Shown here: positions 6,082-61,176 of the stretch, in pieces
How the letters are laid out: every line of letters begins with the position of its first letter
Position numbering within the stretch: position 1 is the first letter of the stretch
Source: a bacterium
GTDB taxonomy: Bacteria; Bacteroidota; Ignavibacteria; Ignavibacteriales; Ignavibacteriaceae
Length of the DNA: 64,000 bases
Reading direction: 5' to 3'
NCBI GenBank assembly: GCA_016716565.1
Contig: JADJWC010000002.1
Location: forward strand, 109,858 to 173,857
The notes under the pieces: generated by a model
Databases searched by the model: none
What the model saw: only the letters and a program-made list of their open reading frames with translations
What the model was told of the DNA's origin: nothing
Translations under genes and position numbers: made by a program

Positions 6082-9000
6082 TCACTTTTTCGATTCATCC
6101 GGAGCTGGTGGTACAACGATCTTCTTCCTCGGATTGTTTTTCAACTCTTCCAGTAAGACTTCCACCGCTTTTTCAAGTGAAGGATCTCTTCCCTGAACAA
6201 CCAGGTCAGCACGGTCATCGATTTCTATATCAGGATAAACACCTTCATTTTCAATAGCCCAGTTGCCATTAGTATCTAAAAATCTAAAAACAGGAATATT
6301 AATGTTGCCGCCATCCATCAAATTAGGATTTCCGGAAATTCCGATAAGTCCTCCCCAGGTTCTGGTACCGATTATTTTTCCCAATCCTTCTTTTCTGAAA
6401 TAATACGGAAATGCATCACCGCCGGAACTTGAATAACCATTTATGAGGCAAGCTTTTGGTCCGTCATGAACAAATCCCGGAACAGGAATTGGTTCAGTCC
6501 CGCGTCGTGTCCAATAGTTTAAAGTCTTTCTTGAAACTAATTCAATCATTCTATCCGGCACGAATCCTCCGCCGTTGTAACGGTCGTCTATAATTAAAGC
6601 TTCTTTGTTTGTCTGAGGATAAAAATATTTGAAGAGTTCTCTGTTCCCTTCTGTTGCGGTGTTTGGAATGTGAATGTATCCAATTTTTCCGCCTGATAAT
6701 TCATCAACCATTTTCATGCGTGAATTTACCCAATCAAGATAAAACAGGTTTTGTTCGCTCTTGACCGGTTTTACTTTTTCTTCTCTTGCACCTTCTTTCG
6801 ATGGTTTAGAATTAACAAGAAGTGTTACAACTTTATCTGCTTTGTTTTCAAGATATTTGTACGGATTTATGTCAGCAGACAACTCGTGACCATCGATAGC
6901 AATTATAAAATCTCCTTCTTTTACACTAACTCCATACTCTGTTAACGGTGATCGAAAATCTGAATGCCAGTTTTCACCTTTGAATATTTTTGTGATCTTA
7001 TAGAAACCTGATGGATCAGCTTCAAGTTCGCAGCCAAGTAATCCACCATCTATTCTTTTAACTCTTTCAAAATCTCCCCAATCAACATAAGTGTGCCCCG
7101 CACTCAACTCACCAACCAGTTCGCCAAAAATGTAATCAAGATCCATTCTGTGAGAAAGATATGGAACAAGCTGTCCATATTTCTCCCGCATTTTGTCCCA
7201 ATCATTACCATGCATTTTTTCATCATAGAACCAGTCACGCAATAAACGCCAACCGTCAACATATATCTGTTTCCATTCTTCTTTTGGGAAAATTTTTATT
7301 TCCAGATTACTAAGATCTATTCTGCCATCCGTATTCTTCTGGTTTTCTTTAACGTCAACAATTCCATATTCACCAGCTTTGGCATACAATAATTTTTTAC
7401 TATTGGATGAAACAACATAGTTACCAATATCTTCAAGCACTGTTACTTCTTTTTCATCTTCCTGGTTAAAGAATTTTAATTTTGAACCTGAGTCATCGCG
7501 ATAGATATAGAGAACTCCTTTTTCTGCCTGATGAAGCGAACCATAATTTCCTGATTTTCCGGGAAGGACTGCAATTCGATTTTCAAAATTTTCAGGATCG
7601 ATTTTTACAACTACTTTTCCGGTATCTTTTTTATTATTCTGTTCACCATTTGTTTTTTCATCATCACTTTTTGGCTGGAATAATGCCGGGACATCATTAT
7701 TCAGAGCAGCAGAATAAACTCGTGTCGGATTCGTATAAACATAATTGAATTCCCAGTTGCTGAATTTCAGATTAAAATCACGGTTTGAGAAGAAATACAG
7801 ATAATTTCCATCTCTGCTGAAAACAGGATTGAATTCATTTGTCAGATCGCTTGTAAGCTGCATAGTTTTTTTCTGGTCAATTGAATATACCCATATCGAA
7901 CTCATACGTGATTCACTTCCCTTTGTGTATGTCAGCCACTTACTGTCCGGTGACCATTGATAGTCTCTGATGTCATTATAATTGCTTTGATCAACTTCAG
8001 TAGTGCTTCCTGTATTTACATCGACATACCACAACTTCTGATTCTTATCTGAATATGCAAGCTTTTTGCTGTCAGGTGACCAAACAGGAGCAAATCGCCA
8101 GATAGTTCCGTCCTTTGTAATTTGTTTTTCTTCACCTTTGCCATCACTTGCTTTCATAAAAATTTCGTACTCGCCCTTACGGTCAGAAAGATATGCGATC
8201 CATTTTCCATCAGGAGACCATACAGGATCAATTTCTCTTATACCGGGAGTTTGCGTGATGTTTACTATCTCACCATTCTCTGCAGGAACAGTAAATACAT
8301 CTCCTCTTGCTTCAAGTAAGGCTCTTTTTCCGGTTGGAGAAATCTCAAACCAGTTTACCTGACCCTTTAAATTTTTTATATAAGGAACAGTTCCCGGAAA
8401 ATCCCCAAAAACCTTTATTTGGACTTGTTCATTTTTATTTGTTGATGGATCATATTTGTAAATATATCCCCCGTTTTCATAAACAATTTTATCATCGCCT
8501 GCACTTGGCCATAGAACATCGTAATTATCAAAATCGCTGACAGCAGAAGTTTGTTTTGAAGAAAGATCGTAAGAATAAAGATTAAGAGTACCAGTTCTGT
8601 CAGATGTAAAATAAATTTTTTCTCCAACCCACATCGGCTGATTATCAGTTCCAAGCCAGTCGGTGATTTTTTCTGTGGTATTATTTTTTAAGTCGTAAAT
8701 CCAAACATCCTGTGCACGACCGCCGCGGTATCTTTTCCAAGTTCGCCATTCTCTTTCAATCGGAGTGTAAACCATTTTTGTTCCATCAGGAGATAACATT
8801 CCTCCTCCGCCTTCAGGAATTTGTAATGGAGTTTCAAATCCACCATCAACCGGAACGAGAAAATATTTTCCCATTCTTTCACCCCAGGGAAGTCGGTTCC
8901 CACGAAAAAGAACATTCTTTCCATCCGGTGTCCAGTCGAGAACCTGGTAATCAAATCCACCGCGCGGCGGCATAACTCCAACATCATTGTAGTAAGTTAA

Positions 9001-14202: not shown

Positions 14203-17200
14203 CTATTTAGCGTATTCGGAAGGGCTGACATTAAAATACTTTGTGAATGCTTTGCTGAAATGTGACGGGCTGTTGTAACCGACTTCGTATGCAACCTGGG
14301 TCACGGATAATCTTTTCTCAATTAGCATCTCGGCTGCACGTTTTAACCTGTAAGCTCGTATAAATTCACCCGGCGCCTGCCCTGTTATAGCCTGTATTTT
14401 TCTGTGAAGCTGCATACGGCTTACAAATAATTCTTTTGCAAATTGTTCAGTATCGTATTCAACATCATCGAGATGTTTTTCAATAATGTCGTATGCTTTT
14501 TTAAGAAACTCATCATCAAGAGGATTTGTTGTTACTCTTTCCGGTCGTGGATGAATATCCTTACCGAATTTTTCTTTTAGTCTCCTCCTTTGCTCGATAA
14601 GATTTTTAATTCGTGTAAGAAGCTCTTTTGCATCAAATGGTTTTATAAGGTAATCATCAGCGCCGGTTTCAAGCCCTTCTATTTTATTATCGTGTGATGC
14701 TTTAGCAGTTAGAAGGATAACAGGTATATGTGAAGTGAGAAATTCTGTTTTAATTATTCTGCAGAATTCTATCCCATCCATTTCTGGCATCATTACATCA
14801 CTCACTATCAGATCAGGCATAATTTCTTTTGCTTTCTCAAGTCCCTGCTGACCGTTAACAGCTTCTTCAACTTTATAATGGCTATTGAGAACGTCTTTAA
14901 TGTATTCACGCACATCACGGTTATCTTCAACAAGCAGAATCAGATTTTTATTTTCTCTTAGGTCGTTACCAATATCTCCAGTTACCAACTCAGTTTTCTT
15001 CGTAAATACAGATTCATCAATGTAAATATTTTCGAGTTCCTGAACAGAGCTCTCAACTATTTCATCATCTTTCAGATGATTTCTTCCCAACGGAAATTCA
15101 ACAATAAACTCACTGCCGCTTGTCCCGACTTTGTCGGGATCGCCGACTTTACTATTCACACGAATACTTCCGTTGTGCAATTCGATGAGTTCCTTAATTA
15201 AAGCGAGACCTAATCCTGAACCTTCATATTCTCTTGTCTGTGAACTGTCAACCTGGTAAAACCTGTCAAACAGTTTCGGCAGTTCATCTTCGGATATTCC
15301 AATGCCGGTGTCACGAACAGAAATACAAATAAATTCTGTTACCTTTGTTTGACCCACCCCTCGCCCCTCCAATGGAGGGGATAACGATCTTTTTGAAGTC
15401 CCCTCCTCCGGAGGGGATTTAGGGGTGGGTGAATAGATACCCACCGTTATACTCCCACCTTCAGGCGTAAACTTGAATGCATTCGAAAGAAGGTTAGTGA
15501 GAATTTTTATCATCATTTCTTTGTCGAAGTAAAGCTCAATGGTATCTTGTTCCGATTCTATCTTAAGATTAATGTCTTTCCGCTCTGCAAGAGATTCAAA
15601 AGACATTACAATTCCTTTTACAAAAGGAACGATATTACTCTTCGATGCTTTAATTTTCAGCTTGCCTGCTTCCAGTCTGGAAAGATCAAGAAGCTGGTTT
15701 ATAAGATTCATCAGGCGGTGAGCATTTCTCCTGATAATTCCCGTAAGCTTTTCAATTTCATCTGCCGGAGTATCGGAAGTTAGTTTATCAATCGGACCAA
15801 GAATCAAAGTAAGCGGTGTTCTGAACTCGTGAGAAATATTTGCAAAGAAACGTGATTTCATTTTATCTGTTTCTTCTCTTTCCTGCAATTTCACTTCATC
15901 AAGCTTAACCTGGTTTTTTAATCTTAGTCGGTTCATTTCGTATCGTCTCACTGCATAAAAAATGCTTAGCACGAATAAAATGTAAAACGTGTATGCCCAC
16001 CATGTTGCCCAAAAAGGCGGCGAAATTATAATCTTAATTGATGCACCATCTTCATTCCAGACACCATCGAGATTACAGGCCTTAACTTTGAAAACATATT
16101 CGCCTGCATCAAGATTTGTATAAGTTGCATTTCTTTGAGTTCCTGCATCAATCCATTCTTCTTCATATCCTTCCAACTTGTACATATACTTGTTTCTTGA
16201 AGGATCTGCATAATGCAATCCTACATAATCAAATCGAAGATCGTTTTCATCATAAGAAAGATTTAATTCTTTAACGTTCGTTATCAATCCATCATACTCC
16301 AATTTTTCATCAGGTCTGTTAAAGAGAGACACATTGCTGATGACAACTTGCGGAGGAACCGGATCGTCTTTTATATTATCTGGATGAAACAGAATAAATC
16401 CATCAGCAGTACCAAACAACATTTCTCCATTTGAATTTTTAAAAGCACTATTGACTGCAAACCTATCGCCTTCAAAATTTTCTGAGGTCGTGTAGTTTTT
16501 TACAGTATGCGTAGAGGTATTCAACATTGATAATCCGTAATCTGTACCAATCCATAAATTGCCGTTGTTATCTTCTAATATCGACCTAACCAAATTATTA
16601 CCTAGCTTAATGGTAGAAATAAAGGATTCTGAATCTCTGTCAAATAAAGCAATACCTTGATTATAAGTCCCGACCCAGAGATTTCCACACTGATCTTCAT
16701 AAATTGCAAGTACAACAAGTTCATTACCATTAGCAAACCTAAATGATTTAAATGAATTAGTGGATGGATCAAATTTATTGAGCCCTGCATTACCTTGACT
16801 TGCGACCCAAATAAAACCATCACGAGCACGAATAATACCTTCCACTCTGTTATCACCAATACCTTGCTTATCATTTTCATCTGGAAGATATTTCAGGAAT
16901 TTACCTGTTTTCTTATTGAATTTATTTATACCGCCACCACGTGTTGTAATCCAGAGGATATCATCACCATCTGGCAACATACTACGAATTATGTTATTAC
17001 TGATTGATTCAGGATTATCAGGATTATTTGAATAGAATTTCAACTTATTACTTGCCAGATCAAATCTTACTATTCCCCTATAAGATGTACCAAGCCAGAA
17101 AACTCCAGATTTCTCTCTACAAATAAACGTTACTGTATTATCATACTTATTATTATCAAATTTGAAATTCTTAAATTCACCTGATTTTCTATTAAAACTA

Positions 17201-17979
17201 TTGAGGCCGAGCTTAGTGCCAAACCATATTGTCCTTGTTGAGTCTTCGATAATACACTTAACTACTTTGGAATCTTTATCAGCACTTTTATTAATAGCTC
17301 GATTAAAACGTTTAAACTTAAATTTATTCCCATCCCATTTATTCAATCCACTGAAATAAGAACCGATCCAAATTATCCCGGTTTTATCTTTGAAAATTGA
17401 TTGTAATAAATTGGGGTTACTAATACTAAACTGATATTCCGGATGATATTCAATGAGTTTAAAATTCTCACTAGCTGGATCAAAAATCACAAGACCGGAG
17501 TACTCTATAGATCCAAATATTAACCAGAGAAATCCATGATCGTCTTCGACCATTTTCCGAACATAATTATCATTTCTATAATTTATTGAGGGAGTTAGTT
17601 GATAGTGTTTAGAATTTAAACTTCGCAAGTCTAATTTTGTTACTCCCAATGAATGTCCAATCCATAATATTCCATCTCTTGCTTGGAGAAAAGAATTGAT
17701 TGTACCAATGGATGAAATCAGATTATTAATACGATCATCTTCTGTAAGGAGTTCTTTCTCCTTATCATAAATTAATATCCTGTTTTCAGTACCTACGTAA
17801 ATATTTCCCGATAACTTATCATAGGAAATAGAACTAACCCCTTTCGAAAGAACAGATTTATTATAATAAATACGACTGAATTTTTCCTTAACTATATTAA
17901 ATAAGTATAAACCACTATTAGCTCCAATTAAAAAATTGCCATCTTTTACCTGAAGTATACAATTTACCCAGTTTGGCAC
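14203..17979 (-). CDS. hybrid two-component system sensor histidine kinase/response regulator with AraC-type HTH (Bacteroidetes HTCS); N-terminal 64 codons are in another frame (see 17994-18188)
   Basis: Y_Y_Y/two-component-regulator propeller repeats. HisKA H-box HEFRTPLT. HATPase_c. REC (LLVEDN...DLIVSDVMMP). C-terminal AraC HTH. Carries an 80-bp repeat insertion at 15352-15431. Confidence 0.85.
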   Translation of the reverse strand: MPNWVNCILQVKDGNFLIGANSGLYLFNIVKEKFSRIYYNKSVLSKGVSSISYDKLSGNIYVGTENRILIYDKEKELLTEDDRINNLISSIGTINSFLQARDGILWIGHSLGVTKLDLRSLNSKHYQLTPSINYRNDNYVRKMVEDDHGFLWLIFGSIEYSGLVIFDPASENFKLIEYHPEYQFSISNPNLLQSIFKDKTGIIWIGSYFSGLNKWDGNKFKFKRFNRAINKSADKDSKVVKCIIEDSTRTIWFGTKLGLNSFNRKSGEFKNFKFDNNKYDNTVTFICREKSGVFWLGTSYRGIVRFDLASNKLKFYSNNPDNPESISNNIIRSMLPDGDDILWITTRGGGINKFNKKTGKFLKYLPDENDKQGIGDNRVEGIIRARDGFIWVASQGNAGLNKFDPSTNSFKSFRFANGNELVVLAIYEDQCGNLWVGTYNQGIALFDRDSESFISTIKLGNNLVRSILEDNNGNLWIGTDYGLSMLNTSTHTVKNYTTSENFEGDRFAVNSAFKNSNGEMLFGTADGFILFHPDNIKDDPVPPQVVISNVSLFNRPDEKLEYDGLITNVKELNLSYDENDLRFDYVGLHYADPSRNKYMYKLEGYEEEWIDAGTQRNATYTNLDAGEYVFKVKACNLDGVWNEDGASIKIIISPPFWATWWAYTFYILFVLSIFYAVRRYEMNRLRLKNQVKLDEVKLQEREETDKMKSRFFANISHEFRTPLTLILGPIDKLTSDTPADEIEKLTGIIRRNAHRLMNLINQLLDLSRLEAGKLKIKASKSNIVPFVKGIVMSFESLAERKDINLKIESEQDTIELYFDKEMMIKILTNLLSNAFKFTPEGGSITVGIYSPTPKSPPEEGTSKRSLSPPLEGRGVGQTKVTEFICISVRDTGIGISEDELPKLFDRFYQVDSSQTREYEGSGLGLALIKELIELHNGSIRVNSKVGDPDKVGTSGSEFIVEFPLGRNHLKDDEIVESSVQELENIYIDESVFTKKTELVTGDIGNDLRENKNLILLVEDNRDVREYIKDVLNSHYKVEEAVNGQQGLEKAKEIMPDLIVSDVMMPEMDGIEFCRIIKTEFLTSHIPVILLTAKASHDNKIEGLETGADDYLIKPFDAKELLTRIKNLIEQRRRLKEKFGKDIHPRPERVTTNPLDDEFLKKAYDIIEKHLDDVEYDTEQFAKELFVSRMQLHRKIQAITGQAPGEFIRAYRLKRAAEMLIEKRLSVTQVAYEVGYNSPSHFSKAFTKYFNVSPSEYAK
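15352..15431. repeat. GC-rich nested palindromic repeat inserted in-frame inside the HTCS HATPase domain
   Basis: cccacccct cgcccctccaatggagggg ... cccctcctccggagggg ... aggggtggg. It encodes the extra loop SPTPKSPPEEGTSKRSLSPPLEGRGVGQTKVT between GGSITVGIY and EFICISVRDTGIGI. Related to the repeats at 55137, 55657 and 57754. Confidence 0.6.
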
Positions 17980-29123: not shown

Positions 29124-29198
29124 TACTTTATTGTCTGTGTGGTAGGACTCGAACCTACATTTTCCCGGCTCCAAACCGGCACGGATAACCAATTCCCG
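29124..29198 (-). tRNA. tRNA-Pro (anticodon UGG)
   Basis: Hand-folded cloverleaf. Acceptor CTGTGTG/CACACAG. T-arm GTAGG-TTCGAGT-CCTAC. Anticodon loop TTTGGAG. Confidence 0.7.
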
Positions 29199-29253
29199 TC
29201 ACACACAGATATAATTTAGTAAACGTATTATCTATTAAAAATTCCAATTATAA

Positions 29254-29324
29254 AATTTTATTGCGTGACGTGTGGGATTTGAACCCCGACTCCTGATAGA
29301 CAGTCAGGTGTGTTTCCGTTACAC
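29254..29324 (-). tRNA. tRNA-Asp (anticodon GUC)
   Basis: Anticodon arm CCTGA-CTGTCTA-TCAGG. T-loop TTCAAAT. Acceptor/T-stem register is ambiguous by hand. Confidence 0.6.
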
Positions 29325-29354
29325 TACACATCACTTTTATAGATATTCTATTAA

Positions 29355-29428
29355 TATTTAATTGTCCCACCGATAGGATTCGAACCTACATCATTTCGGT
29401 TAAAAGCCGAAAGCATTGCTCCTTTATG
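29355..29428 (-). tRNA. tRNA-Lys (anticodon UUU)
   Basis: D-arm GCAT-AAAGGAGCA-ATGC. Anticodon arm TTCGG-CTTTTAA-CCGAA. T-loop TTCGAAT. Confidence 0.8.
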
Positions 29429-29442
29429 CTACGGTGGAATAA

Positions 29443-29515
29443 TGTCTTTAAGTACTCTCTGCAGGAATCGAACCCACATCTAACTGCTTAGAAGACAGCT
29501 GCATTATCCTTTATG
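29443..29515 (-). tRNA. tRNA-Arg (anticodon UCU)
   Basis: Acceptor GCTCTCT/AGAGAGT. Anticodon loop CTTCTAA. T-loop TTCGATT. Confidence 0.7.
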
Positions 29516-29520
29516 CTAAG

Positions 29521-29592
29521 AGAGCGTTGGAATCGTTATAAGGATTTGAACCTTAATCCCCCGACTCGTAAGCGGGTATCTTTTCCATTAGA
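29521..29592 (-). tRNA. tRNA-Arg (anticodon ACG)
   Basis: Acceptor GTCGTTA/TAACGAT. Anticodon loop TTACGAG. T-arm TAAGG-TTCAAAT-CCTTA. Confidence 0.7.
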
Positions 29593-29595
29593 CGA

Positions 29596-29668
29596 TAACG
29601 ACTTGAGCCAACGCAAGGATTCGAACCCTGTTCTCCGGTTTACAAAACCGGTGCATCAACCTGTAATG
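29596..29668 (-). tRNA. tRNA-Thr (anticodon UGU), aberrant acceptor stem
   Basis: Anticodon arm CCGGT-TTTGTAA-ACCGG is perfect. Acceptor 5' GCCTTCG vs 3' CGTTGGC gives two adjacent U:U mismatches. The 5' end sits inside the perfect palindrome AATGCCTTCGAAGCATT. Confidence 0.55.
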
Positions 29669-29673
29669 CTTCG

Positions 29674-29757
29674 AAGGCATTCGTACAAGTAGAAGGATTC
29701 GAACCTTCAAGCCCTCAAGGGCAGTAGTTTCTAAGACTACCGTGTATACCAATTCCA
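29674..29757 (-). tRNA. tRNA-Leu (anticodon UAG), class II with long variable arm
   Basis: Anticodon arm GTAGT-CTTAGAA-ACTAC. Variable hairpin GCCC-TTGA-GGGC. T-arm GAAGG-TTCGAAT-CCTTC. Confidence 0.8.
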
Positions 29758-29763
29758 CCATAC

Positions 29764-29835
29764 TTGCATTCAGGGTGTGAGCTAAGATTTGAACTTAGTC
29801 CTATTGGGTCACAGCCAATTATGCTGCCATTACAC
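29764..29835 (-). tRNA. tRNA-His (anticodon GUG) with G-1; acceptor has two internal mismatches
   Basis: Anticodon arm ATTGG-CTGTGAC-CCAAT. Extra 5' G pairs with C73. Acceptor 5' GTGTTTG vs 3' CTCACAC gives U:C and U:U mismatches. Confidence 0.6.
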
Positions 29836-29908
29836 CACAAACACCATAATAATGTCGTTAAAGGAAATGAATACCTATCTTAAAAATTTTTAAATCAATC
29901 TATCTAAG

Positions 29909-29982
29909 AACGATAAAGTCCTACGGGTAGGATTCGCACCCACTATCTCCCGGATATAAGCCGGGTGCATTTACTAATTATG
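29909..29982 (-). tRNA. tRNA-Ile (anticodon UAU), atypical: no GG in D-loop, T-loop TGCGAAT
   Basis: Acceptor CCTACGG/CCGTAGG is perfect. Anticodon arm CCCGG-CTTATAT-CCGGG. D-loop AATTAGTAA. Confidence 0.6.
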
Positions 29983-29983
29983 C

Positions 29984-30055
29984 TTCCGTAGGGTAGCGGG
30001 TATTGGATTCGAACCAATGACCTTCAGCTTATGAAACTGATGAGCTGCCGCTGCT
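29984..30055 (-). tRNA. tRNA-Met or tRNA-Ile2 (anticodon CAU; elongator type)
   Basis: Acceptor GGCGGGT/ACCCGCT. D-arm GAGC-AGCGGCA-GCTC. Anticodon loop TTCATAA. Lacks the initiator features (C1:A72 mismatch, GGG/CCC anticodon stem). Confidence 0.75.
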
Positions 30056-30065
30056 CAAACCCGCC

Positions 30066-30140
30066 AAATGATTAGTGGAAAGGGTAGGAATCGAACCCAC
30101 GCAGTCAACGGGCTTCAACCGCTTGCTCTACCTGCTGAGC
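30066..30140 (-). tRNA. tRNA-Phe (anticodon GAA)
   Basis: Acceptor GGAAAGG/CCTTTCC. D-arm GCTC-AGCAGGTAGA-GC. Anticodon loop TTGAAGC. Confidence 0.85.
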
Positions 30141-30147
30141 TACCTTT

Positions 30148-30219
30148 CCATATTTTGCAGTCCCGGCAGGATTTGAACCTACATCTTTGGGTTCAAAGCC
30201 CAATGTGCTTACCATTGCA
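30148..30219 (-). tRNA. tRNA-Gln (anticodon UUG)
   Basis: Anticodon arm TTGGG-CTTTGAA-CCCAA. D-arm GTGC-AATGGTAA-GCAC. T-loop TTCAAAT. Confidence 0.8.
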
Positions 30220-30223
30220 CCAC

Positions 30224-30299
30224 AGAACTATTGAGTCGGTAAAGGGAGTTGAACCCTCACTTCAAGTTTGGAAGACTTACGTGCTGGTTCCGTTAAACA
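30224..30299 (-). tRNA. tRNA-Gly (anticodon UCC), enlarged D-loop
   Basis: Acceptor GTCGGTA/TACCGAC is perfect. Anticodon loop CTTCCAA. D-region is 21 nt. Confidence 0.7.
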
Positions 30300-30322
30300 C
30301 TATACCGACGGATTGAAAAATT

Positions 30323-30393
30323 GATTCTCTGCTGAACAGGCAGGACTCGAACCTGCATCATTCCGGTTAACAGCCGGGCGCTTCACCATTGAG
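30323..30393 (-). tRNA. tRNA-Asn (anticodon GUU)
   Basis: Acceptor TGAACAG/CTGTTCA is perfect. Anticodon loop CTGTTAA. T-arm GCAGG-TTCGAGT-CCTGC. Confidence 0.75.
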
Positions 30394-30414
30394 CTACTGT
30401 TCAATTAATTTTAT

Positions 30415-34785: not shown

Positions 34786-34826
34786 TTAAAAAAACCCTCA
34801 GAATTTTATCATCTTGAGGGTTTTTG
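34786..34826. terminator. bidirectional rho-independent terminator (A-run, hairpin ccctcag...cttgaggg, T-run)
   Basis: Lies between the rtcR stop and the 3' end of the convergent tRNA-Thr. Confidence 0.55.
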
Positions 34827-34899
34827 AGCTGGTGAACGGATTCGAACCGCCGACCGGCTGATTACAAATCAGCTGCTCTACCAGCTGAGCTACACCAGC
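34827..34899 (-). tRNA. tRNA-Thr (anticodon UGU), canonical
   Basis: Acceptor GCTGGTG/CACCAGC is perfect. D-arm GCTC-AGCTGGTAGA-GC. Anticodon arm GCTGA-TTTGTAA-TCAGC. T-loop TTCGAAT. Confidence 0.85.
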
Positions 34900-54014: not shown

Positions 54015-55127
54015 ATGAATACTTACAATACATCTCAAAAATCCGAACCCCGAATCCGGCAAACTATCCGAAGCGATTTCCGGCAGACAAAAATCAAAGA
54101 AGAATTCAAATCCGAGTATAAAGATCTGAAGCAATATTTTCTGACTGAAGAGCGGAAGAAAAAGCTTGAGAGCATGAACGCATTTAAGAAATTTTTTGTT
54201 CTTCCGTGGTGGCTCCTAAAAGCGATGTATCTCCGGCTGACTCCGTTCAGAAGAATTCTTTTTTTCATAGGGTTAATAGTATTAATAACATCTGGAAACA
54301 TCCAAACAGATGGAAGTGAGACAACACTGTCCTTGAATATATCAGCTATACTTGTCGGAATAATTTTTTTATTCATACTTGCGCTTGAATTAAAAGATAA
54401 ACTATTGGCAAAAACAGAGCTTGAGGAAGGCAGAGCAATCCAGCAGGCATTGATGCCGGAACAATCACCAAAAGTAAATGGATGGGATATCTGGCTGTTC
54501 ACTCGTTCGGCGAATGATGTTGGAGGTGATTTACTTGATTTTATTCAGGTTGGAGAAAATAAATTTGGTGTTGCTGTCGGTGATGTTGCTGGCAAAGGAT
54601 TGAGTGCTGCACTGCTGATGGCAAAGCTGCAATCAACTATCCGCGCAATAATTTATGATCAGCTTCCTTTGAGTAGAATGTGTCAAAAGTTAAATTCGAT
54701 TTTTTACAGAGATAGTCCTTCCAAAATATTCGCTTCACTTGTTTATACTGAGATATCAAATTCATCCGGTGAGATTAATTTTATTAATGCCGGACATTAT
54801 CCTCCTTTGGTTGTTAAGAAGGAACAAATCATAAAGTTAAGTAAAGAATCGCCGGCACTTGGATTAATGATTAATGCTGATTTCTCAGAAAAAAGTATTT
54901 CTCTTGAAAAAGATGAATTTATGTTGATTTATTCCGATGGATTGACTGAAGCACAAAATGTTTCAGGTGATTTCTTTGAAGAGAAAAGGCTGATTGATCT
55001 ACTGAATAAGAAACACTATTTAACTTCCCGGCAGCTCGGAGAGATGATAATTGAAAATGTAGACTTCTTCAGGGGAAAAGTGCCAGCACACGATGATTTA
55101 ACTCTTGCGATTTTGAAGAAGGTTTGA
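54015..55127 (+). CDS. membrane-anchored PP2C/SpoIIE-family protein serine/threonine phosphatase
   Basis: Two TM helices. GDLLDF...GDVAGKGLSAALLMA...YSDGLTEA...HDDLTLA. Confidence 0.75.
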   Translation: MNTYNTSQKSEPRIRQTIRSDFRQTKIKEEFKSEYKDLKQYFLTEERKKKLESMNAFKKFFVLPWWLLKAMYLRLTPFRRILFFIGLIVLITSGNIQTDGSETTLSLNISAILVGIIFLFILALELKDKLLAKTELEEGRAIQQALMPEQSPKVNGWDIWLFTRSANDVGGDLLDFIQVGENKFGVAVGDVAGKGLSAALLMAKLQSTIRAIIYDQLPLSRMCQKLNSIFYRDSPSKIFASLVYTEISNSSGEINFINAGHYPPLVVKKEQIIKLSKESPALGLMINADFSEKSISLEKDEFMLIYSDGLTEAQNVSGDFFEEKRLIDLLNKKHYLTSRQLGEMIIENVDFFRGKVPAHDDLTLAILKKV

Positions 55128-55136
55128 AATTTCCAC

Positions 55137-55254
55137 TCCCCTCCTCTCCGAGGAGGGGACGAAGGGGTGGTGCGACAAAGTTATTTCCGAATTTTTAACT
55201 AAACACCACCCCGTCCGGCAACTACCGGACACCCCTCCTCAGAGAGGAGGGGAT
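55137..55254. repeat. GC-rich ~118-bp triple-hairpin palindromic repeat (MITE/REP-like), copy B
   Basis: cccctcctctccgaggaggggacgaaggggtgg...caccaccccgtccggcaactaccggacacccctcctcagagaggagggga. Confidence 0.65.
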
Positions 55255-55268
55255 AACGTTTTATTTTA

Positions 55269-55628
55269 TTATTCTTTTCTGAAATGGCTTTTTATTTCTT
55301 TAAGCACTTTATCAAGATTTAATAATACTTCCTGATTTTCAAATCTGATTACTTTTATTCCTTCAGCTTCAATCTGCTTTGTTCTATTCTCGTCATCTTT
55401 AATTGCTTTTTCGTCGAAGTGAAAATCTCCATCGAGTTCAATAACCAGTTTTTCTTCCGGACAGTAAAAATCAACAATAAAATTTTTTACGCTTGACTGT
55501 CTTCTGAATTTTCTTCCTTCAAACTGACTGTTCTTCAAGTATCCCCACAGAAATGCTTCAGCTTGGGTTGCATTGTTTCGAAGATGTTTTCTTTTATCCT
55601 TCAGATTCTTTCTGTTAAAAGTCTTCAT
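55269..55628 (-). CDS. DUF559 (Vsr-like endonuclease fold) protein
   Basis: FIVDFYCPEEKLVIELDGDFHFDE...IKVIRFENQEV. Flanked by GC-rich repeats on both sides. Confidence 0.7.
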   Translation of the reverse strand: MKTFNRKNLKDKRKHLRNNATQAEAFLWGYLKNSQFEGRKFRRQSSVKNFIVDFYCPEEKLVIELDGDFHFDEKAIKDDENRTKQIEAEGIKVIRFENQEVLLNLDKVLKEIKSHFRKE

Positions 55629-55656
55629 ACTTAAAATTATAAAAAGTGCAGGTTTA

Positions 55657-55774
55657 TCCCCTCCTCTCCGAGGAGGGGATGAAGGGGTGGAGGGAGAAAA
55701 AGTAGTTATTGAGTTTTAAGTATAAGCACCACCCCGTCACTTCGTGACACCCCTCCTCATAAATGAGGAGGGGA
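55657..55774. repeat. GC-rich triple-hairpin repeat, copy C (central hairpin changed compensatorily to gtcacttcgtgac)
   Basis: cccctcctctccgaggaggggatgaaggggtggaggg...caccaccccgtcacttcgtgacacccctcctcataaatgaggagggga. Confidence 0.65.
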
Positions 55775-55795
55775 TATTAATTTATTTTATAATTA

Positions 55796-57697
55796 TTATT
55801 TGAGAAGTATCATCTTTTCTGAATCGGTGAACACAGGTATATTTCTTTCGTCTATTACTTGTATCGAATAAATATACATTCCGCTTGACATATGACTGTA
55901 TGTTTTTCCCATCATCACTTCAAACTTTGTAATCTTACTTTTGTCTTCTGCATTCGGCTGAAAGACTACTTCATAATATCCTTTCTCCTGCCATTCGTTC
56001 ACTAGTATTCTTACCAACTCTCCTTTCAAATCATAAATACTTAGTCTAACGTGTCCCCTTTCTTTTAACCTGTATGGAATTTTTGTGGATGGATTAAATG
56101 GATTCGGGTAATTTGCCAGAAGTCTGTATCCGTCGTATCCTTTTGGAGGATGTTCTCCTAATCCTGTTACCAATACATTTATCTCTTCACTCGGATAGCT
56201 CTGGTTTCCCTGGTTGTCGAATGCTGTTATCACATAATAAAATCTTGTCTCTTTGTTTACCGGTGGAAGCTGATCGTAGTAAAATGTATCCGGTGTTTCT
56301 GCTATCATTTTTGTTGAATCGTAGATAAGAATTGTAACTGTATCCCTGTAAATCCTGTAATGAGAGAAATCTGCTTCTGTGTTTTTATTCCAGGTTAGTT
56401 TTACAAGTCCTTCTTCTATCGTGGCAGTTACATTATGAGGAGGGCGGGGAGCCAAATCCTCATAAGTATATGTCCAGCCGTAAGGACCACCATAAAGCCC
56501 GATGTCGCTTCTGCTTCCGTCTCTGTCAAGAATTGTTGGATCGCCTGCATCTATTAAAGGTGAATATTTCTCAAGATGAAAATCCAAATCTCCTTGTGTT
56601 GTGTCATCATTTACTACCATCGGGTCAACTGAGAGGTTTGTTGTGTCTGGTGTGAAGCCATAATAATTAATATCGTTATTCCATACGTTGTTGTATTTAA
56701 AAATCAGATTCTGTGTGCCCCAGGCTTCTATTCCTCTTTCTGCATTCGTAACAACATTATTTTTTACAGAATGATTGGGACCAATACTAATCACATATTC
56801 CAAATCTTGAAAGTTCCCTGTCGCATAGTTATTGACTATATATAGATGATTGCTTCCATTCGTATAAATTGCATCTATTCCCTGCTCTGCATAAATTTTA
56901 TTATTGAATACCCAGTTAGAGTCTGAAGCAAAACTATGCAGGAAAATGCCATCAATACCACCTTTCAGAATTATTATATTGTTTGTTATTGTTGATCTGG
57001 TACCGGGTGATTTAGTTATACCATTACTTTTAGTTTCAATATAATTAGAATCTATTACCGGTTTATAATTTGAATTATCAGCTGTTATATAAATACCTTC
57101 ACCGAGTGTCTCGGCTAATGTAAAAATATCATTTCTGCTTATTCTAGAATTAGAATTATATAATAAAACACCAATTCGTAGATTGAAATAATAATTTCTA
57201 TAAGCTTGAATATCGGAGAACCAAAGCAAAATACCTGTATTAGAATTAGAAAATTTGTTTTCTGTTATCAACCCATTTTGTCCTGTTGCGTAAATACCAT
57301 ATCCATAATTAAAGTCATTAGAAGTTCGAATATAGAACCCTGTCACAAGACAAGAATCTTTCATCGTAATTGTTTTATTGCCAGAAGGAGGGTAAATCCT
57401 GCTATCCACGACGCAGGAATCTGTTCCTGCACCAATGAGTGCTAACCCCGGTATCATCACAACCTGTTCTTGGTAAACTCCGTTGGCAACATAAATGGTA
57501 TCGCCAAAGACAGAAATGTTAATACACTTTTGTATGCTGTCTGCGGCGGTTTCCCAGCTTGTGTAGGGTGGTATGCTGCTTCCGGTTTTGCTGACAAATC
57601 TAATCGTAGCGTTAAGCGGTAAGCTGTAAGCGATAAGAAGGAAAAATAAAATCAGGAAGAGAGTTTGGTAATATTTTTTGTAGTCGTTCAAGTGCAC
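55796..57697 (-). CDS. T9SS-sorted right-handed parallel beta-helix repeat protein with FN3-like domain
   Basis: Signal anchor. Repeated NxxI beta-helix rungs. C-terminal LANYPNPFNPSTKIPYRL...MILLK. Confidence 0.65.
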   Translation of the reverse strand: MHLNDYKKYYQTLFLILFFLLIAYSLPLNATIRFVSKTGSSIPPYTSWETAADSIQKCINISVFGDTIYVANGVYQEQVVMIPGLALIGAGTDSCVVDSRIYPPSGNKTITMKDSCLVTGFYIRTSNDFNYGYGIYATGQNGLITENKFSNSNTGILLWFSDIQAYRNYYFNLRIGVLLYNSNSRISRNDIFTLAETLGEGIYITADNSNYKPVIDSNYIETKSNGITKSPGTRSTITNNIIILKGGIDGIFLHSFASDSNWVFNNKIYAEQGIDAIYTNGSNHLYIVNNYATGNFQDLEYVISIGPNHSVKNNVVTNAERGIEAWGTQNLIFKYNNVWNNDINYYGFTPDTTNLSVDPMVVNDDTTQGDLDFHLEKYSPLIDAGDPTILDRDGSRSDIGLYGGPYGWTYTYEDLAPRPPHNVTATIEEGLVKLTWNKNTEADFSHYRIYRDTVTILIYDSTKMIAETPDTFYYDQLPPVNKETRFYYVITAFDNQGNQSYPSEEINVLVTGLGEHPPKGYDGYRLLANYPNPFNPSTKIPYRLKERGHVRLSIYDLKGELVRILVNEWQEKGYYEVVFQPNAEDKSKITKFEVMMGKTYSHMSSGMYIYSIQVIDERNIPVFTDSEKMILLK

Positions 57698-57753
57698 ACT
57701 CTCAAATTCGTTTATATAAATATTTTTTAAAATAAAAGAGTAATAACACTATT

Positions 57754-57870
57754 CCCCTCCTGCCAGAGGAGGGGACGAAGGGGTGGAGGGAGAAAAATCA
57801 TTATCGTGTTTTTAACTAAACACCACCCCGTCCGGCAATTGCCGGACACCCCTCCTCAAAGAGGAGGGGA
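57754..57870. repeat. GC-rich triple-hairpin repeat, copy D
   Basis: cccctcctgccagaggaggggacgaaggggtggaggg...caccaccccgtccggcaattgccggacacccctcctcaaagaggagggga. About 90% identical to copy B, with paired changes in stems. Confidence 0.65.
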
Positions 57871-57887
57871 TTTTTATTTTTAAATTT

Positions 57888-59741
57888 TTATTTAATCAGC
57901 ATCATCTTTCGCGTCAGCTCGGTGCTGCCGGAAATAATTCTGTACAAATACAATCCGCTGCTCAGTTTTTCAGCATTAAAATTAACTTCGTGAACTCCTG
58001 CAGGATATTTTCCTTCTGCTACTGTTGCAACCTCTGTTCCTAATGCATCGAATACTTTCAATGTAATATATGAAGCTTCAGGCAGTTGGAAGCTAATTGT
58101 TGTTGTTGGGTTGAACGGATTGGGATAGTTCTGACTGAGTGCAAATTCTTTCACAGTAAATAAATTCACTTCCAGCTCATTTGAATAATTTACAGCACCA
58201 TCATAATCAACCTGCTTCAAACGGTAGTGATATGTTCCGTCATAGAAAAGTCTGTCTTCAAACTGATATAAATTTCTTTCGGTTGAGTTGCCGTGTCCCT
58301 CAACGAATCCAATTTCAATCCATTCACTCTCTTCTTCTGCTTGATTCAAATCTCTTCTTTCAATATAGAATCCGAGGTTGTTTAGTTCACTTGAAGTCTG
58401 CCAGGATAAAAAGACTTTTCCGTCTTCTGCATTTGCAGCAAAATTATTCAGCTCAACCGGAATTGTTATTGAGTCTTCAATGATTGAAACCCAAACACTC
58501 AGACTGGTCTGAAGCCGCATCCATATCGGATAAATCTTTCCATCTAAAGCCGCAATGTTTGTGTAATCACCAAAGAATACTCCGGATGTTGGTGTAAAAG
58601 AACTTTCACTGATCTTGAAGTTATCAAAAGTAGCGCCGCCGTCAGTTGATTTTGCAACAAAGACATCGGTTGCAGCACCGGTTGTGTTTCTTCTATCATA
58701 AAAAACAAACCATAAATGACCGGTTGAAGGATCAATGGTTGACCAAACAAAAAACTGATGACGGGTTGTGTTATCGTTGTTGACTTTTATCGGAGAAGTC
58801 CACGTATTACCACCGTTTGTTGATCTTGCCATAAAAATATCAGTATCAGTTGCACCATTTCTCTGATCTGACCAAACCACATAAACATTTCCTCTGTAAG
58901 GTGAATTGCTGATATCACACATTGTAATCGGGAGTCCGTTGCATCTGTAAATTCCTGAAACCTCAAAATCCCAACCGCCGGGAATATCGGAAACAAAAAT
59001 ATCCTGTCCCCAAGTTTGACCACCATCAAGTGATTTATCGAATACGATTCCAACCGGACCAGCCCACGCAACATAAACTTCGCCATTTGGTCCAACACAA
59101 GGAACTGCACCTTCAGTTGTATGATCGCTGTCTATACAATTTCCACTGACATCACTTATTACTTTTGTCGGGCTCCATGATAAACCATAATCGGTTGATT
59201 TTGAAAATCTTATTCTCGAACTATCCGACTGATTTGAACTGCCATAGTCATCGAACTCAGTCCACGTGGCATATATTGTTCCCCTGTATGGAGATTGCGA
59301 ATGATCTACCGCCAGCCATTCCTTATCCTGTGCTTGAGGTGAGATACCCTGATAAATTCCTACTCCACCATTCCAGCTGAGTCCGTTATTAGTTGACCTT
59401 TGCACAACTATTCTATCAATCCACCAGCCTGATATCGGGTTAGAAAGATGTGAATAATAAAGATTACCAAGGCTGTCAAATAAGACGACGGGATCGCCCC
59501 AGACTCCGAGAGAACTTGAAACCATTTGAGATTCCGTCCAGGTTAATCCGCCATTAGTTGAGCGATAAAAACAATTAATGTTTGCTCCTGCGGCAAGTAT
59601 ATTCGGATTAAGAGGATTGATGGCAATCGTAACTTCGTTTGGACTGCCGCTGTTATCAACCAGTATATTTGGATACTGAGAAAAGAGATTAACCGAAGTT
59701 AACAATACAATAAGAAGAGAAATGTTAAGAATTTTTTTCAT
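57888..59741 (-). CDS. T9SS-sorted BNR/Asp-box repeat (sialidase-like beta-propeller) protein
   Basis: STNGGLTW, STNNGLSW, STDYGLSW, LDGGQTW, STNGGNTW, STDGGATF boxes. C-terminal SQNYPNPFNPTTTISFQL...MMLIK. Confidence 0.7.
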   Translation of the reverse strand: MKKILNISLLIVLLTSVNLFSQYPNILVDNSGSPNEVTIAINPLNPNILAAGANINCFYRSTNGGLTWTESQMVSSSLGVWGDPVVLFDSLGNLYYSHLSNPISGWWIDRIVVQRSTNNGLSWNGGVGIYQGISPQAQDKEWLAVDHSQSPYRGTIYATWTEFDDYGSSNQSDSSRIRFSKSTDYGLSWSPTKVISDVSGNCIDSDHTTEGAVPCVGPNGEVYVAWAGPVGIVFDKSLDGGQTWGQDIFVSDIPGGWDFEVSGIYRCNGLPITMCDISNSPYRGNVYVVWSDQRNGATDTDIFMARSTNGGNTWTSPIKVNNDNTTRHQFFVWSTIDPSTGHLWFVFYDRRNTTGAATDVFVAKSTDGGATFDNFKISESSFTPTSGVFFGDYTNIAALDGKIYPIWMRLQTSLSVWVSIIEDSITIPVELNNFAANAEDGKVFLSWQTSSELNNLGFYIERRDLNQAEEESEWIEIGFVEGHGNSTERNLYQFEDRLFYDGTYHYRLKQVDYDGAVNYSNELEVNLFTVKEFALSQNYPNPFNPTTTISFQLPEASYITLKVFDALGTEVATVAEGKYPAGVHEVNFNAEKLSSGLYLYRIISGSTELTRKMMLIK

Positions 59742-59808: not shown

Positions 59809-61176
59809 TTATTCCTTTATCAATTTGTTTTTAACCCGTCCGCCTTTTTTCATTGGATCGTCAGGATATCCAAGTTCTTTCCAGTTGAGCAATCCTTCAC
59901 CGCCTTTTCCGTGGCAGGAAGTACATTTAAGAGCGTTGTCTGCACTCATCACCATATGATTGATTGGCCAGTACATTTTTGTTTCAATGAAATCTACCGT
60001 ACCGGAAAATTCCTGATTTATCTGCTGCATTCCTCTTGTCGACGCAGTGACCCAATCAGATGTACTTGCGTAACTTTCTTCTCCAAAAATTCTCGGGATG
60101 ATAAGATTTTTATTTACAGGATCGTAAGGTTGTTTAGATTTAACAACTTTGAAAGGAGAAATTTTTGATTTTGGATTTGAAATTTTACCTGCTGGTTTGT
60201 TTATGTCAATCACTTTTGACTTTTCAATTTTTTCACCAAGCTCATAATAATCTGAAGAACCATCACTCCAGTAATACTCCGGTTTTATATTTTTTGACCA
60301 TACGAGTTCGCCGAAATTTTTAAAGTAAGTTTCCTGACCGTATTCATCTTTTGTTGATTCCCTGTCTTCACCTGCTTTTGACCAATCCCAGAAAGTAACT
60401 GTTGGTTCTGTTCTTGCATAAGTTGGAATATGACAGGTTTGACACGCAACCGCTGATGAATGATTGTTCAAGTTTTCCTTTTTGTGAGGATTTGCATCGT
60501 GACAATTTTCGCAAGCTACAGGACTTTCTCCTGCTTCATTTTTAAGTGAGATATTATGCGCTTCACTTTCGTGACAATCGGAACAACCGAATCCCAATCC
60601 GCCGAGATGATAATCAATTTCTTCGGACGGACTGAGAAGACTTGCATCCATCGCTCCGCTTCGTAAAAGAACTCCCCCGCTTCCACTGAAATGACAGGTC
60701 GCACAATTTTCTGTTTTTGGTTTACCAACACTTTGAGCCACTGCAAGTAAGTCAACATCTGCTTCAGAAATTCCTGAACCGAACGGCAATCTCTTGTAAG
60801 TACCCGTTTGATCATGACAAACAAGACAATCAATATTTTCCGCTGAATTAAACTCAAATGATTCATCCATTCCTGCAAATGGAACATGGCAGGATACACA
60901 CTGACTTGAACTATCAGTGACAAACAAACAAAAATTATTTATCGGTACATATTTCCCGTTAACTAACTCTGGTTTGAATTTGGCCGATGTTGCACTCGAA
61001 AGCCAGTTCCAATGATTGGATTGCAACACTTGCTCTCCCATATCATCGTGACACATCAGACATTCAGCAGTGACATCCATTGGTGAATCATAAGGTCCGG
61101 AAACGTTTTCTTTATGATCCTGGGAAAATGATGATTGGGAAATAATCAGCAGTGGGATGAGAAACAACTTTTTCAT
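59809..61176 (-). CDS. secreted octaheme c-type cytochrome
   Basis: Signal peptide. Eight CxxCH motifs (CLMCH, CVSCH, CLVCH, CATCH, CSDCH, CENCH, CQTCH, CTSCH). Confidence 0.75.
   Translation of the reverse strand: MKKLFLIPLLIISQSSFSQDHKENVSGPYDSPMDVTAECLMCHDDMGEQVLQSNHWNWLSSATSAKFKPELVNGKYVPINNFCLFVTDSSSQCVSCHVPFAGMDESFEFNSAENIDCLVCHDQTGTYKRLPFGSGISEADVDLLAVAQSVGKPKTENCATCHFSGSGGVLLRSGAMDASLLSPSEEIDYHLGGLGFGCSDCHESEAHNISLKNEAGESPVACENCHDANPHKKENLNNHSSAVACQTCHIPTYARTEPTVTFWDWSKAGEDRESTKDEYGQETYFKNFGELVWSKNIKPEYYWSDGSSDYYELGEKIEKSKVIDINKPAGKISNPKSKISPFKVVKSKQPYDPVNKNLIIPRIFGEESYASTSDWVTASTRGMQQINQEFSGTVDFIETKMYWPINHMVMSADNALKCTSCHGKGGEGLLNWKELGYPDDPMKKGGRVKNKLIKE

Follow-up and report, generated by a model that had tools for sequence, protein, structure and literature searches.

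What is a small nuclease gene doing between copies of one GC-rich palindromic repeat? The question is raised by a 64,000-nucleotide (nt) stretch of an Ignavibacteriaceae genome (GenBank assembly GCA_016716565.1, contig JADJWC010000002.1, positions 109,858 to 173,857; hereafter the window), in which three elements of about 118 nt, copies A, B and C, bracket a DUF559 gene and the beta-helix gene next to it. We read the three elements as the cognate boundary repeats of a selfish DUF559 cassette inserted at the convergent terminator of a SpoIIE-type phosphatase gene and a BNR gene, and place the probability of this reading at about 0.5. The association between DUF559 and repeats is tight, orientation-fixed and phylogenetically broad, with hairpins and tags particular to each lineage, and the cassette displays insertion polymorphism, relocation and gene-less dispersed derivatives. 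By analogy, hairpin repeats and a Vsr-fold nuclease may form a partnership of the kind seen between repetitive extragenic palindromes (REPs) and REP-associated tyrosine transposases (RAYTs), or one that resembles homing. We found no Rfam family and no paper describing the element-DUF559 system, and suggest that such a partnership is undescribed so far.

The three copies share one orientation and one order of parts: hairpin 1 (H1), a G-box (AYGAAGGGGTGG), an AT-rich core of about 36 nt, a C-box (CCACCCCGTC), a small hairpin (H2) and hairpin 3 (H3). Copy A (55137-55254) lies 9 nt past the stop of the SpoIIE-type phosphatase gene (54015-55127, plus strand) and 14 nt past that of the DUF559 gene (55269-55628, minus strand). 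It consists of H1 (55137-55159), the G-box GAAGGGGTGG (55161-55170), the core (55171-55205), the C-box CCACCCCGTC (55206-55215), H2 (GTCCGGCAACTACCGGAC, 55213-55230) and H3 (55231-55254). Copy B (55657-55774) has its end 28 nt upstream of the DUF559 ATG and its start 22 nt past the stop of the beta-helix gene (55796-57697, minus strand), which encodes 633 residues with a type IX secretion system (T9SS) sorting tail; its parts are H1 (55657-55679), G-box (55681-55690), C-box (55729-55738), H2 (GTCACTTCGTGAC, 55736-55748) and H3 (55749-55774). Copy C (57753-57871) occupies the interval between the beta-helix start (57697) and the stop (57888) of the BNR/T9SS gene (57888-59741, minus strand), with H1 at 57753-57775, G-box at 57777-57786, C-box at 57823-57832, H2 (GTCCGGCAATTGCCGGAC) at 57830-57847 and H3 at 57848-57871. 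An earlier sequence-only reading of this DNA had described triple-hairpin copies of about 118 nt with this architecture, and they are found where it placed them. Its statement that the copies flank both genes is also right in substance, DUF559 and the beta-helix gene each being bracketed, but it named copies B, C and D after listing three; correctly named, A and B bracket DUF559, and B and C the beta-helix gene.

The elements stand out sharply from their surroundings. The pattern CCCCTCCT-N3-12-AGGAGGGG has six matches in the window, all within copies A-C, where shuffled sequences lead one to expect 0.00, and GAAGGGGTGG with its inverted partner has six matches against 1.44 expected. The window has a G+C content of 36.5% and holds 18 perfect GC-rich hairpins, 7 of which lie inside the three copies. 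On either strand copies A-C fold far more strongly than shuffled sequence does (z -5.3 to -10.8), and H1 is an inverted copy of H3, so that one long stem is as good a fold as three local hairpins. The elements have no Rfam match at gathering score; relaxed thresholds gave only chance-level matches in the window and seven related loci, and the Rfam Pedo-repair model did not match in Pedobacter loci.

Linkage to DUF559 recurs in relatives. In six Ignavibacteria loci of 13-20 kb each, retrieved via DUF559 homologues, the hairpins occur on both sides of DUF559 and nowhere else, at fixed distances and in fixed orientation: the upstream element ends about 28 nt before the ATG, and the downstream element starts about 14 nt past the stop. 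Most homologues of the protein are on very short contigs, as is typical for repeat-flanked genes, and the flanks of 44 loci from a metagenome scan with the DUF559 protein repeat the pattern. To score these flanks we compared how densely perfect GC hairpins occur up to 150 nt from the gene and more than 400 nt away from it; an ungapped inverted-repeat score between the upstream and downstream flanks proved too coarse, since alignments are disrupted wherever loops differ. The density falls from 8.5 per kb near the gene to 0.11 per kb far from it in the 30 loci with a protein identity of at least 66%, from 3.7 to 0.08 per kb at 50-59% identity and from 4.5 to 0.06 per kb below 50%. Insertion of the gene into the core of one element was considered and rejected for the window lineage: both flanking elements have complete cores.

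The pattern persists at much greater distance. A sample of 27 independently sampled DUF559 loci comprised isolate genes from a plasmid collection, E. coli K-12 ycjD and distant metagenome loci, with hairpins within 200 nt counted as near. Hairpins with a GC-rich pyrimidine arm and purine arm lie near DUF559 in 23 of the 27, a 14-100-fold enrichment: in 8/9 isolate and E. coli loci (5.8 per kb near, 0.42 per kb far), in 8/9 metagenome loci at 50-59% identity (5.1 and 0.05 per kb) and in 7/9 below 50% (4.0 and 0.04 per kb). These loci come from Cyanobacteria, Deinococcus and alpha-, beta- and gamma-proteobacteria, E. coli ycjD among them. The arms differ by DUF559 clade (CCCCTCCT, CCTTCCCTT, TCCCCCTT, CCCTCTCCC and others), and most isolate hairpins carry a tag that resembles the 3' arm. 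Picosynechococcus and Pseudanabaena have TCCCCC..GGGGG-TTAGGGGG, Azospirillum CCCTTCTCCCC..GGGAGAAGGG-TTGGGATGAGGGG, Sinorhizobium ATCTCCCCC..GGGGGAGAT, Deinococcus CCTCCCCC..GGGGGGAGG and E. coli CCCCTCGCCCCTCT-GGGG-AGAGGGTTAGGGTGAGGGG; in Photobacterium and Neisseria the hairpins are imperfect or sparse, with none in Neisseria under the strict criterion. On hairpin density and on these distant loci, the association with the adjacent nuclease gene that the sequence-only reading had guessed at proves real and far more general than it supposed.

In E. coli, a GC palindrome lies directly downstream of ycjD, the sole DUF559 gene of the species, and palindromes of this type are dispersed over a median of 19 places per genome (5426 genomes). 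BoxC was defined upstream of envM/fabI; by size, copy number and this location, the palindrome between ycjD and fabI is probably BoxC. Published lists give BoxC as a family of 50-56 bp (PMC2267715), and in other phylogroups the ycjD site is that of the eefRABCD operon (PMC12817139). The K-12 locus (NC_000913.3, 1351040-1351830) has further structure: the 3' end of ycjD runs into a hairpin, CCCTCTCCCTGAAAGAGCGAGGGGG, beyond which come a second, partial copy of the ycjD 3' end and, after it, a BoxC-like palindrome. A perfect inverted repeat of 16 bp overlaps with the GTG annotated as the start of the gene.

Comparison of the host site shows what has been inserted. SpoIIE homologues 76-78% identical to that of the window sit in loci with the window gene order, in which DUF2141, DoxX, carbonic anhydrase, DUF1569 and SpoIIE genes meet convergent BNR and cytochrome genes (the multihaem cytochrome is at 59809-61176, minus strand, in the window). 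At L177 and L178-L180 (L numbers denote our loci) the site is empty: the SpoIIE-BNR spacer measures 49-64 nt and contains neither an element nor DUF559, only an ordinary terminator of A-tract, hairpin and T-tract. At L126 and L127 the same site carries element-DUF559-element, without the beta-helix gene and the third element. The spacer of L176 is 261 nt long and retains a 17-nt remnant of H3 beside the BNR stop; the same spacer (L176:6113-6375) also contains four copies of another hairpin family, of the CTCCTACGGAG type. The whole block, element-DUF559-element with or without the beta-helix gene and third element, is thus an insertion. [quoted passage not shown] They are indeed absent there, but together with DUF559, and because of this joint absence the locus shows a mobile cassette and not an unlinked MITE burst.

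The cassette has also moved. Its close relatives are found in 9 upstream and 15 downstream contexts; in L141 a three-element block that includes the beta-helix gene stands behind an RNase III gene, in L140 tandem DUF559 genes have one element between them, and the DUF559 genes of L027 and L103 are broken. The beta-helix gene, which adjoins DUF559 in at least four other genomic contexts, is cargo travelling with the cassette. Gain, loss, tandem duplication and cargo capture are the expected products of recombination between direct repeats of about 118 bp. No direct repeat at the element ends is common to copies A-C. A small palindrome family, GATCCTGAAATAAATTCAGGATG plus CCCGAATCAAGTTCGGG, is nested in the outer hairpins of degraded elements or replaces them (L122, L123, L125, L126, L142), its sites being the flanks of DUF559 and of the beta-helix gene.

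The gene itself encodes a protein of 119 residues with a Vsr-like PD-(D/E)XK nuclease fold, assigned to Pfam PF04480 with an E-value of 1.7e-32 and a hidden Markov model score of 112 bits against a cutoff of 20.6. In the PDB it matches the Neisseria gonorrhoeae DUF559 structure 3HRL (E 2.3e-17) and, weakly, 3R3P, the Vsr-like homing endonuclease of a mobile intron (E 0.0065). All of 25 diverse relatives keep the catalytic-type residues D53, E64, D66 and H70, as well as G67, D79 and R95; with an N-terminal LR..T..E..LW motif added to this set, conservation is 23-25/25, and from this conservation the enzyme is therefore probably active. DUF559-type proteins have been predicted to be Vsr-related nucleases (PMC1189080, PMC3424549). 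In the literature we found no functional study of YcjD/DUF559 and no paper linking DUF559 to flanking repeats, hairpins or MITEs.

The repeats follow a simple grammar. In the basic unit, about 33 nt long, a perfect hairpin (CCCCTCCT-loop-AGGAGGGG) precedes a purine tag, GAAGGGGTGG, that resembles its 3' arm. We call the hairpin plus G-box R and its inverse, C-box plus hairpin, L. R-core-L is the 118-nt element, with short-core forms in Acidobacteriota and a gammaproteobacterium (L041, L048, L038); L-spacer-R is a 78-nt form present at window positions 15350-15430; and L and R sharing one hairpin form a single long palindrome, seen in at least 20 motif-selected loci. Around genes, R-gene-L occurs in Nitrospirota (L009, L063), in Kuenenia (L011) and in L027, L062 and L174, while L-gene-R is a minimal cassette of about 0.5 kb with a 31-nt terminal inverted repeat (L153-L156). 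Judged by these arrangements, the short forms look derived from gene-bearing forms, with the gene missing.

The short relative in the window (C-box, hairpin, 19 nt, hairpin, G-box, the opposite unit order to copies A-C) lies within a hybrid sensor kinase open reading frame (ORF) at 14203-17979 on the minus strand. The insertion is in frame, falls in a loop of the HATPase_c domain, encodes SPTPKSPPEEGTSKRSLSPPLEGRGVGQ and gives the protein about 26 extra residues relative to solved kinases. The same ORF contains a palindrome, TCCCGACTTTGTCGGGA (15123-15139), which resembles H2 variants (GTCCCGATTTATCGGGAC), codes for part of GDPDKVGTS and is perhaps another tiny insertion in frame.

Beyond the window, a scan of a genome collection for GGAGGGGANGAAGGGGTGG returned at least 120 loci. 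In at least 60 of them, with a median G+C of 0.42, the motif falls within a perfect hairpin of at least 7 bp, and these come from Nitrospinota, Nitrospirota, Brocadiales, Ignavibacteria, Bacteroidota, Acidobacteriota and others; the remaining matches listed are mostly chance occurrences in GC-rich genomes. DUF559 is adjacent in at least six motif-selected loci. A Pfam census of 114 ORFs flanking the listed motif loci returned ordinary genes, response regulators (5) and an ABC-transporter permease family (3) being the most frequent, and DUF559 was the sole recurring family of nuclease or recombinase type among those flanks. In about ten or more of the listed loci the motif lies inside a long ORF (440-1246 residues in L005, L014, L022, L024, L066, L101, L120 and others, from Nitrospinota, Brocadiales and other groups), which suggests further in-frame intragenic insertions.

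Several of these contexts are of separate interest. Two IMG/VR contigs classed as viral (L128, L129) carry solo hairpin-plus-G-box units in intergenic positions and could be vehicles for transfer between phyla. As read from sequence only, the DUF559 cassettes of L009 and L063 lie between apparent restriction-modification genes; on cyanobacterial plasmids, that of L182 lies between DUF499 and DUF1156 genes and that of L184 beside the bacteriophage exclusion (BREX) gene PglX. These four cassettes are apparently inside defence loci. The Kuenenia locus L011, which has a hairpin-flanked DUF559, also contains four regularly spaced, weak matches to the CRISPR-repeat family RF01321 at 7742-7981, below gathering score.

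Is it the structure or the sequence of the element that is maintained? When 14 intact copies taken from the window and independent metagenomes are aligned, H1, H3, the G-box and the C-box are invariant in sequence, and variation is confined to the loops, the core and H2. The proposal that structure rather than sequence is conserved therefore fails for most of the element, and the invariant pairs of the outer hairpins carry no information on structure. The H1 change that had been described as preserving pairing, CTCCG against GCCAG, is loop variation with no compensatory change in the stem. Between an outer hairpin and its G-box the linker is either a short unstructured ACGAA or ATGAA or one of about 20 hairpin variants (H2), with stems such as GTCAC/GTGAC, GTCCGGC/GCCGGAC, GTCCTGC/GCAGGAC, GTCCCGA/TCGGGAC, GTCCGCC/GGCGGAC and CGGC/GCCG. 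Since MAFFT misaligns H2 and the longer H3 loops, we analysed H2 by anchoring both of its ends. Over 19 variants, 45/46 of the inner pairs (depths 4-7) are standard against a permuted mean of 0.61, with two to four pair types per depth, and 0/2000 permutations equalled the observed value. True compensatory change thus exists and is limited to H2; the earlier claim that H2 pairing is kept stands across many stems in this wider copy set, while the differences among copies A-C are partly changes of length.

This pairing is compatible with selection at either level. H2 has three G-T wobbles on the gene-sense strand and one on the other, and because this difference is not significant, selection on RNA and maintenance of a DNA palindrome are indistinguishable here. 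A fuzzy-match test of strand-biased wobbles in the outer hairpins was confounded by register-shifted matches and discarded. The invariance of H1, H3 and both boxes, with the recurrence of a 19-mer, GGAGGGGAYGAAGGGGTGG, in several phyla, points to recognition that is sequence-specific rather than by bare structure.

The strongest alternative holds that the elements act at the RNA level only, as terminators, insulators or mRNA stabilisers, either brought in by the cassette or selected on the flanks of a nuclease gene that could be toxic, with no nuclease action on them. Placement fits such a role, the elements starting 14-22 nt past the stop of a minus-strand gene and the insertion having taken the place of an ordinary bidirectional terminator; so do the very stable predicted folds and the H2 pairing kept in many stems, with its three wobbles on the gene-sense strand, though three against one is not significant. 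However, the sense strand has no hairpin with a U-run. Hairpins followed by a T-run occur on the plus strand only (H3 of copies B and C), antisense to the DUF559, beta-helix and BNR genes, so that a stem-loop with a U-run on the transcribed strand, the hallmark of an intrinsic terminator, is lacking for the three minus-strand genes, and the terminator role suggested by the sequence-only reading is weak. Nor do terminators need invariant sequences of 20 nt common to several phyla, and in-frame intragenic copies, an inverted-pair grammar on both sides of the gene and clade-specific arms are left unexplained. We consider this alternative unlikely, at perhaps one chance in five.

Slightly less credit is due to the view that these are ordinary MITE or REP repeats mobilised by an unlinked transposase or RAYT, DUF559 genes being landing sites or hitch-hikers. 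Elements such as Correia/NEMIS and ERIC are likewise about 100-150 bp long, with terminal inverted repeats, and are intergenic, at gene ends. The window element has the terminal inverted repeats, the size below 300 bp and the lack of coding capacity expected of a MITE, and its presence or absence is polymorphic. About 90% of the copies among the motif matches listed are not beside DUF559, and CGTC-type REPs too are without a linked transposase (PMC3733652). Against this, neither a transposase, a parent insertion sequence carrying one, nor a RAYT occurs in the window region or any retrieved context; the sole ORF found between element-type ends is DUF559. The association spans at least eight phyla with different repeats, so that a landing preference would need repeated reinvention. 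The orientation of gene and element is moreover fixed, and no other nuclease- or recombinase-type family recurs beside the repeats among the motif matches listed.

A host-side role is improbable. Here the protein would be a Vsr-like repair or surveillance enzyme that processes hairpins or cruciforms, and its gene would adjoin them for regulation, for example autoregulation through the upstream palindrome. The Vsr-family fold suits this, as does the fact that almost every close relative has a perfect palindrome about 28-50 nt before the ATG. Patchy distribution, insertion polymorphism between close relatives and the pseudogenised copies in L027 and L103 speak against it, and tandem duplication and the many contexts suit a selfish element better than a housekeeping gene. 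An integron-like cassette array with the 118-nt elements as attC-type sites, suggested by the direct-repeat series element-gene-element-gene-element with co-oriented genes, an element just past each stop and a length within the attC range, is close to refuted: RYYYAAC/GTTRRRY core sites are absent from either strand of copies A-C, no integrase is nearby and no IntI gene with attI adjoins the array at the window locus, the housekeeping genes beside it are those that also flank the empty sites, and the partner is always DUF559 rather than diverse cassette genes.

Several observations also weigh against the selfish DUF559 cassette with cognate boundary repeats. The link between DUF559 proteins and the repeats is purely positional. 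Neither a target-site duplication nor a precise junction can be defined, the empty-site genomes being too diverged. The order of units around the gene differs by lineage, so that a single geometry of cutting and copying is not obvious. Unlike in classical REPs, copy number in the window lineage is very low: 64 kb hold 3 + 1 copies, and in related loci totalling about 110 kb every copy lies beside DUF559. Many metagenome loci are orthologous, so that the 30 close-relative loci are not independent events, and the metagenome search was seeded with words from the query peptide, which biases the choice of relatives. Photobacterium and Neisseria have a high local hairpin background and no enrichment near DUF559.

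If the DUF559 cassette does work through its boundary repeats, a homing-like cycle can be proposed. The nuclease would nick or cut its own repeat type, probably acting as a dimer on the palindrome or on an extruded hairpin. The break would be repaired from a cassette-bearing copy, the repeats serving as portable homology, and repair would copy the gene and repeats into solo repeats, by homing or by a Campbell-type gain. Recombination between the direct repeats would then lead to loss, tandem arrays and capture of cargo such as the beta-helix gene. As a side effect, the hairpins would probably stop or stabilise transcripts.

Such a cycle has counterparts in known systems. REPs and their paired forms (REPINs) are short GC-rich imperfect palindromes with an asymmetric tag, which occur singly, as inverted pairs forming one long hairpin and in clusters; the partner RAYT gene has its own repeat type on either side, the sequence of that repeat is specific to the partner lineage, and copies lie downstream of genes and occasionally within them (PMC3733652). 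The elements described here share these features, but their partner is a PF04480 DUF559 PD-(D/E)XK nuclease and not a Y1/HUH transposase, the unpaired GTAG/CGTC tag of REPs (PMC3733652) is missing, its place being taken by AYGAAGGGGTGG, and copy number in the window lineage, as judged from the window and six related loci, is very low beside the tens to hundreds of dispersed copies per genome of REP systems. Membership in the CGTC-tagged REPs was rejected on stem and tag, the CGTC inside CCACCCCGTC being paired as the base of H2. In its workings the system resembles a REPtron, though it falls outside the REP/RAYT family.

Likeness to the E. coli BoxC repeat is one of build: BoxC, too, forms an imperfect GC-rich palindrome, its 5' arm made of pyrimidines and its 3' arm of purines, with an arm-like box outside them. 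It is about 56 bp long and present in about 20-30 copies, and the window element differs from it in primary sequence. With homing endonucleases such as I-Bth0305I (PDB 3R3P), which has the same nuclease fold and a weak sequence match, the cassette shares a small selfish nuclease gene that is present or absent, polymorphically, at a fixed site. Here, however, there is neither an intron nor an intein, and the nuclease presumably targets a portable repeat instead of a conserved gene of the host. Rickettsia palindromic elements (RPEs) are likewise palindromic repeats that lie in frame within genes without destroying them, but they have other sequences, occur in other taxa and have no known linked nuclease gene.

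Elsewhere in the window, 14 tRNA genes lie within 1.3 kb on the minus strand (29133-30403: Pro, Asp, Lys, Arg x2, Thr, Leu, His, Ile-TAT, Met, Phe, Gln, Gly and Asn), and an extra tRNA-Thr gene (34826-34899, minus strand) stands 4.4 kb from this array.

DUF559 is a very large family without assigned biology, and its link to one palindromic repeat class gives it a testable role. More tentatively, and with clearly less than even odds, DUF559 proteins including YcjD may be the dedicated nucleases of widespread orphan GC-rich palindromes with pyrimidine and purine arms, a PD-(D/E)XK counterpart of REP-RAYT in which the repeats are landing pads for a homing gene that seeds new repeats between genes and in frame within them. 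This orphan class would include BoxC-like repeats, the cyanobacterial CCCCC..GGGGG-TTAGGGGG repeats and rhizobial palindromes, and if this is true, orphan repeats of the BoxC type gain a candidate enzyme. The cassette explains metagenome contig breaks at DUF559 genes, odd proline/glycine-rich peptide inserts in predicted proteins and changes of gene order at cassette sites.

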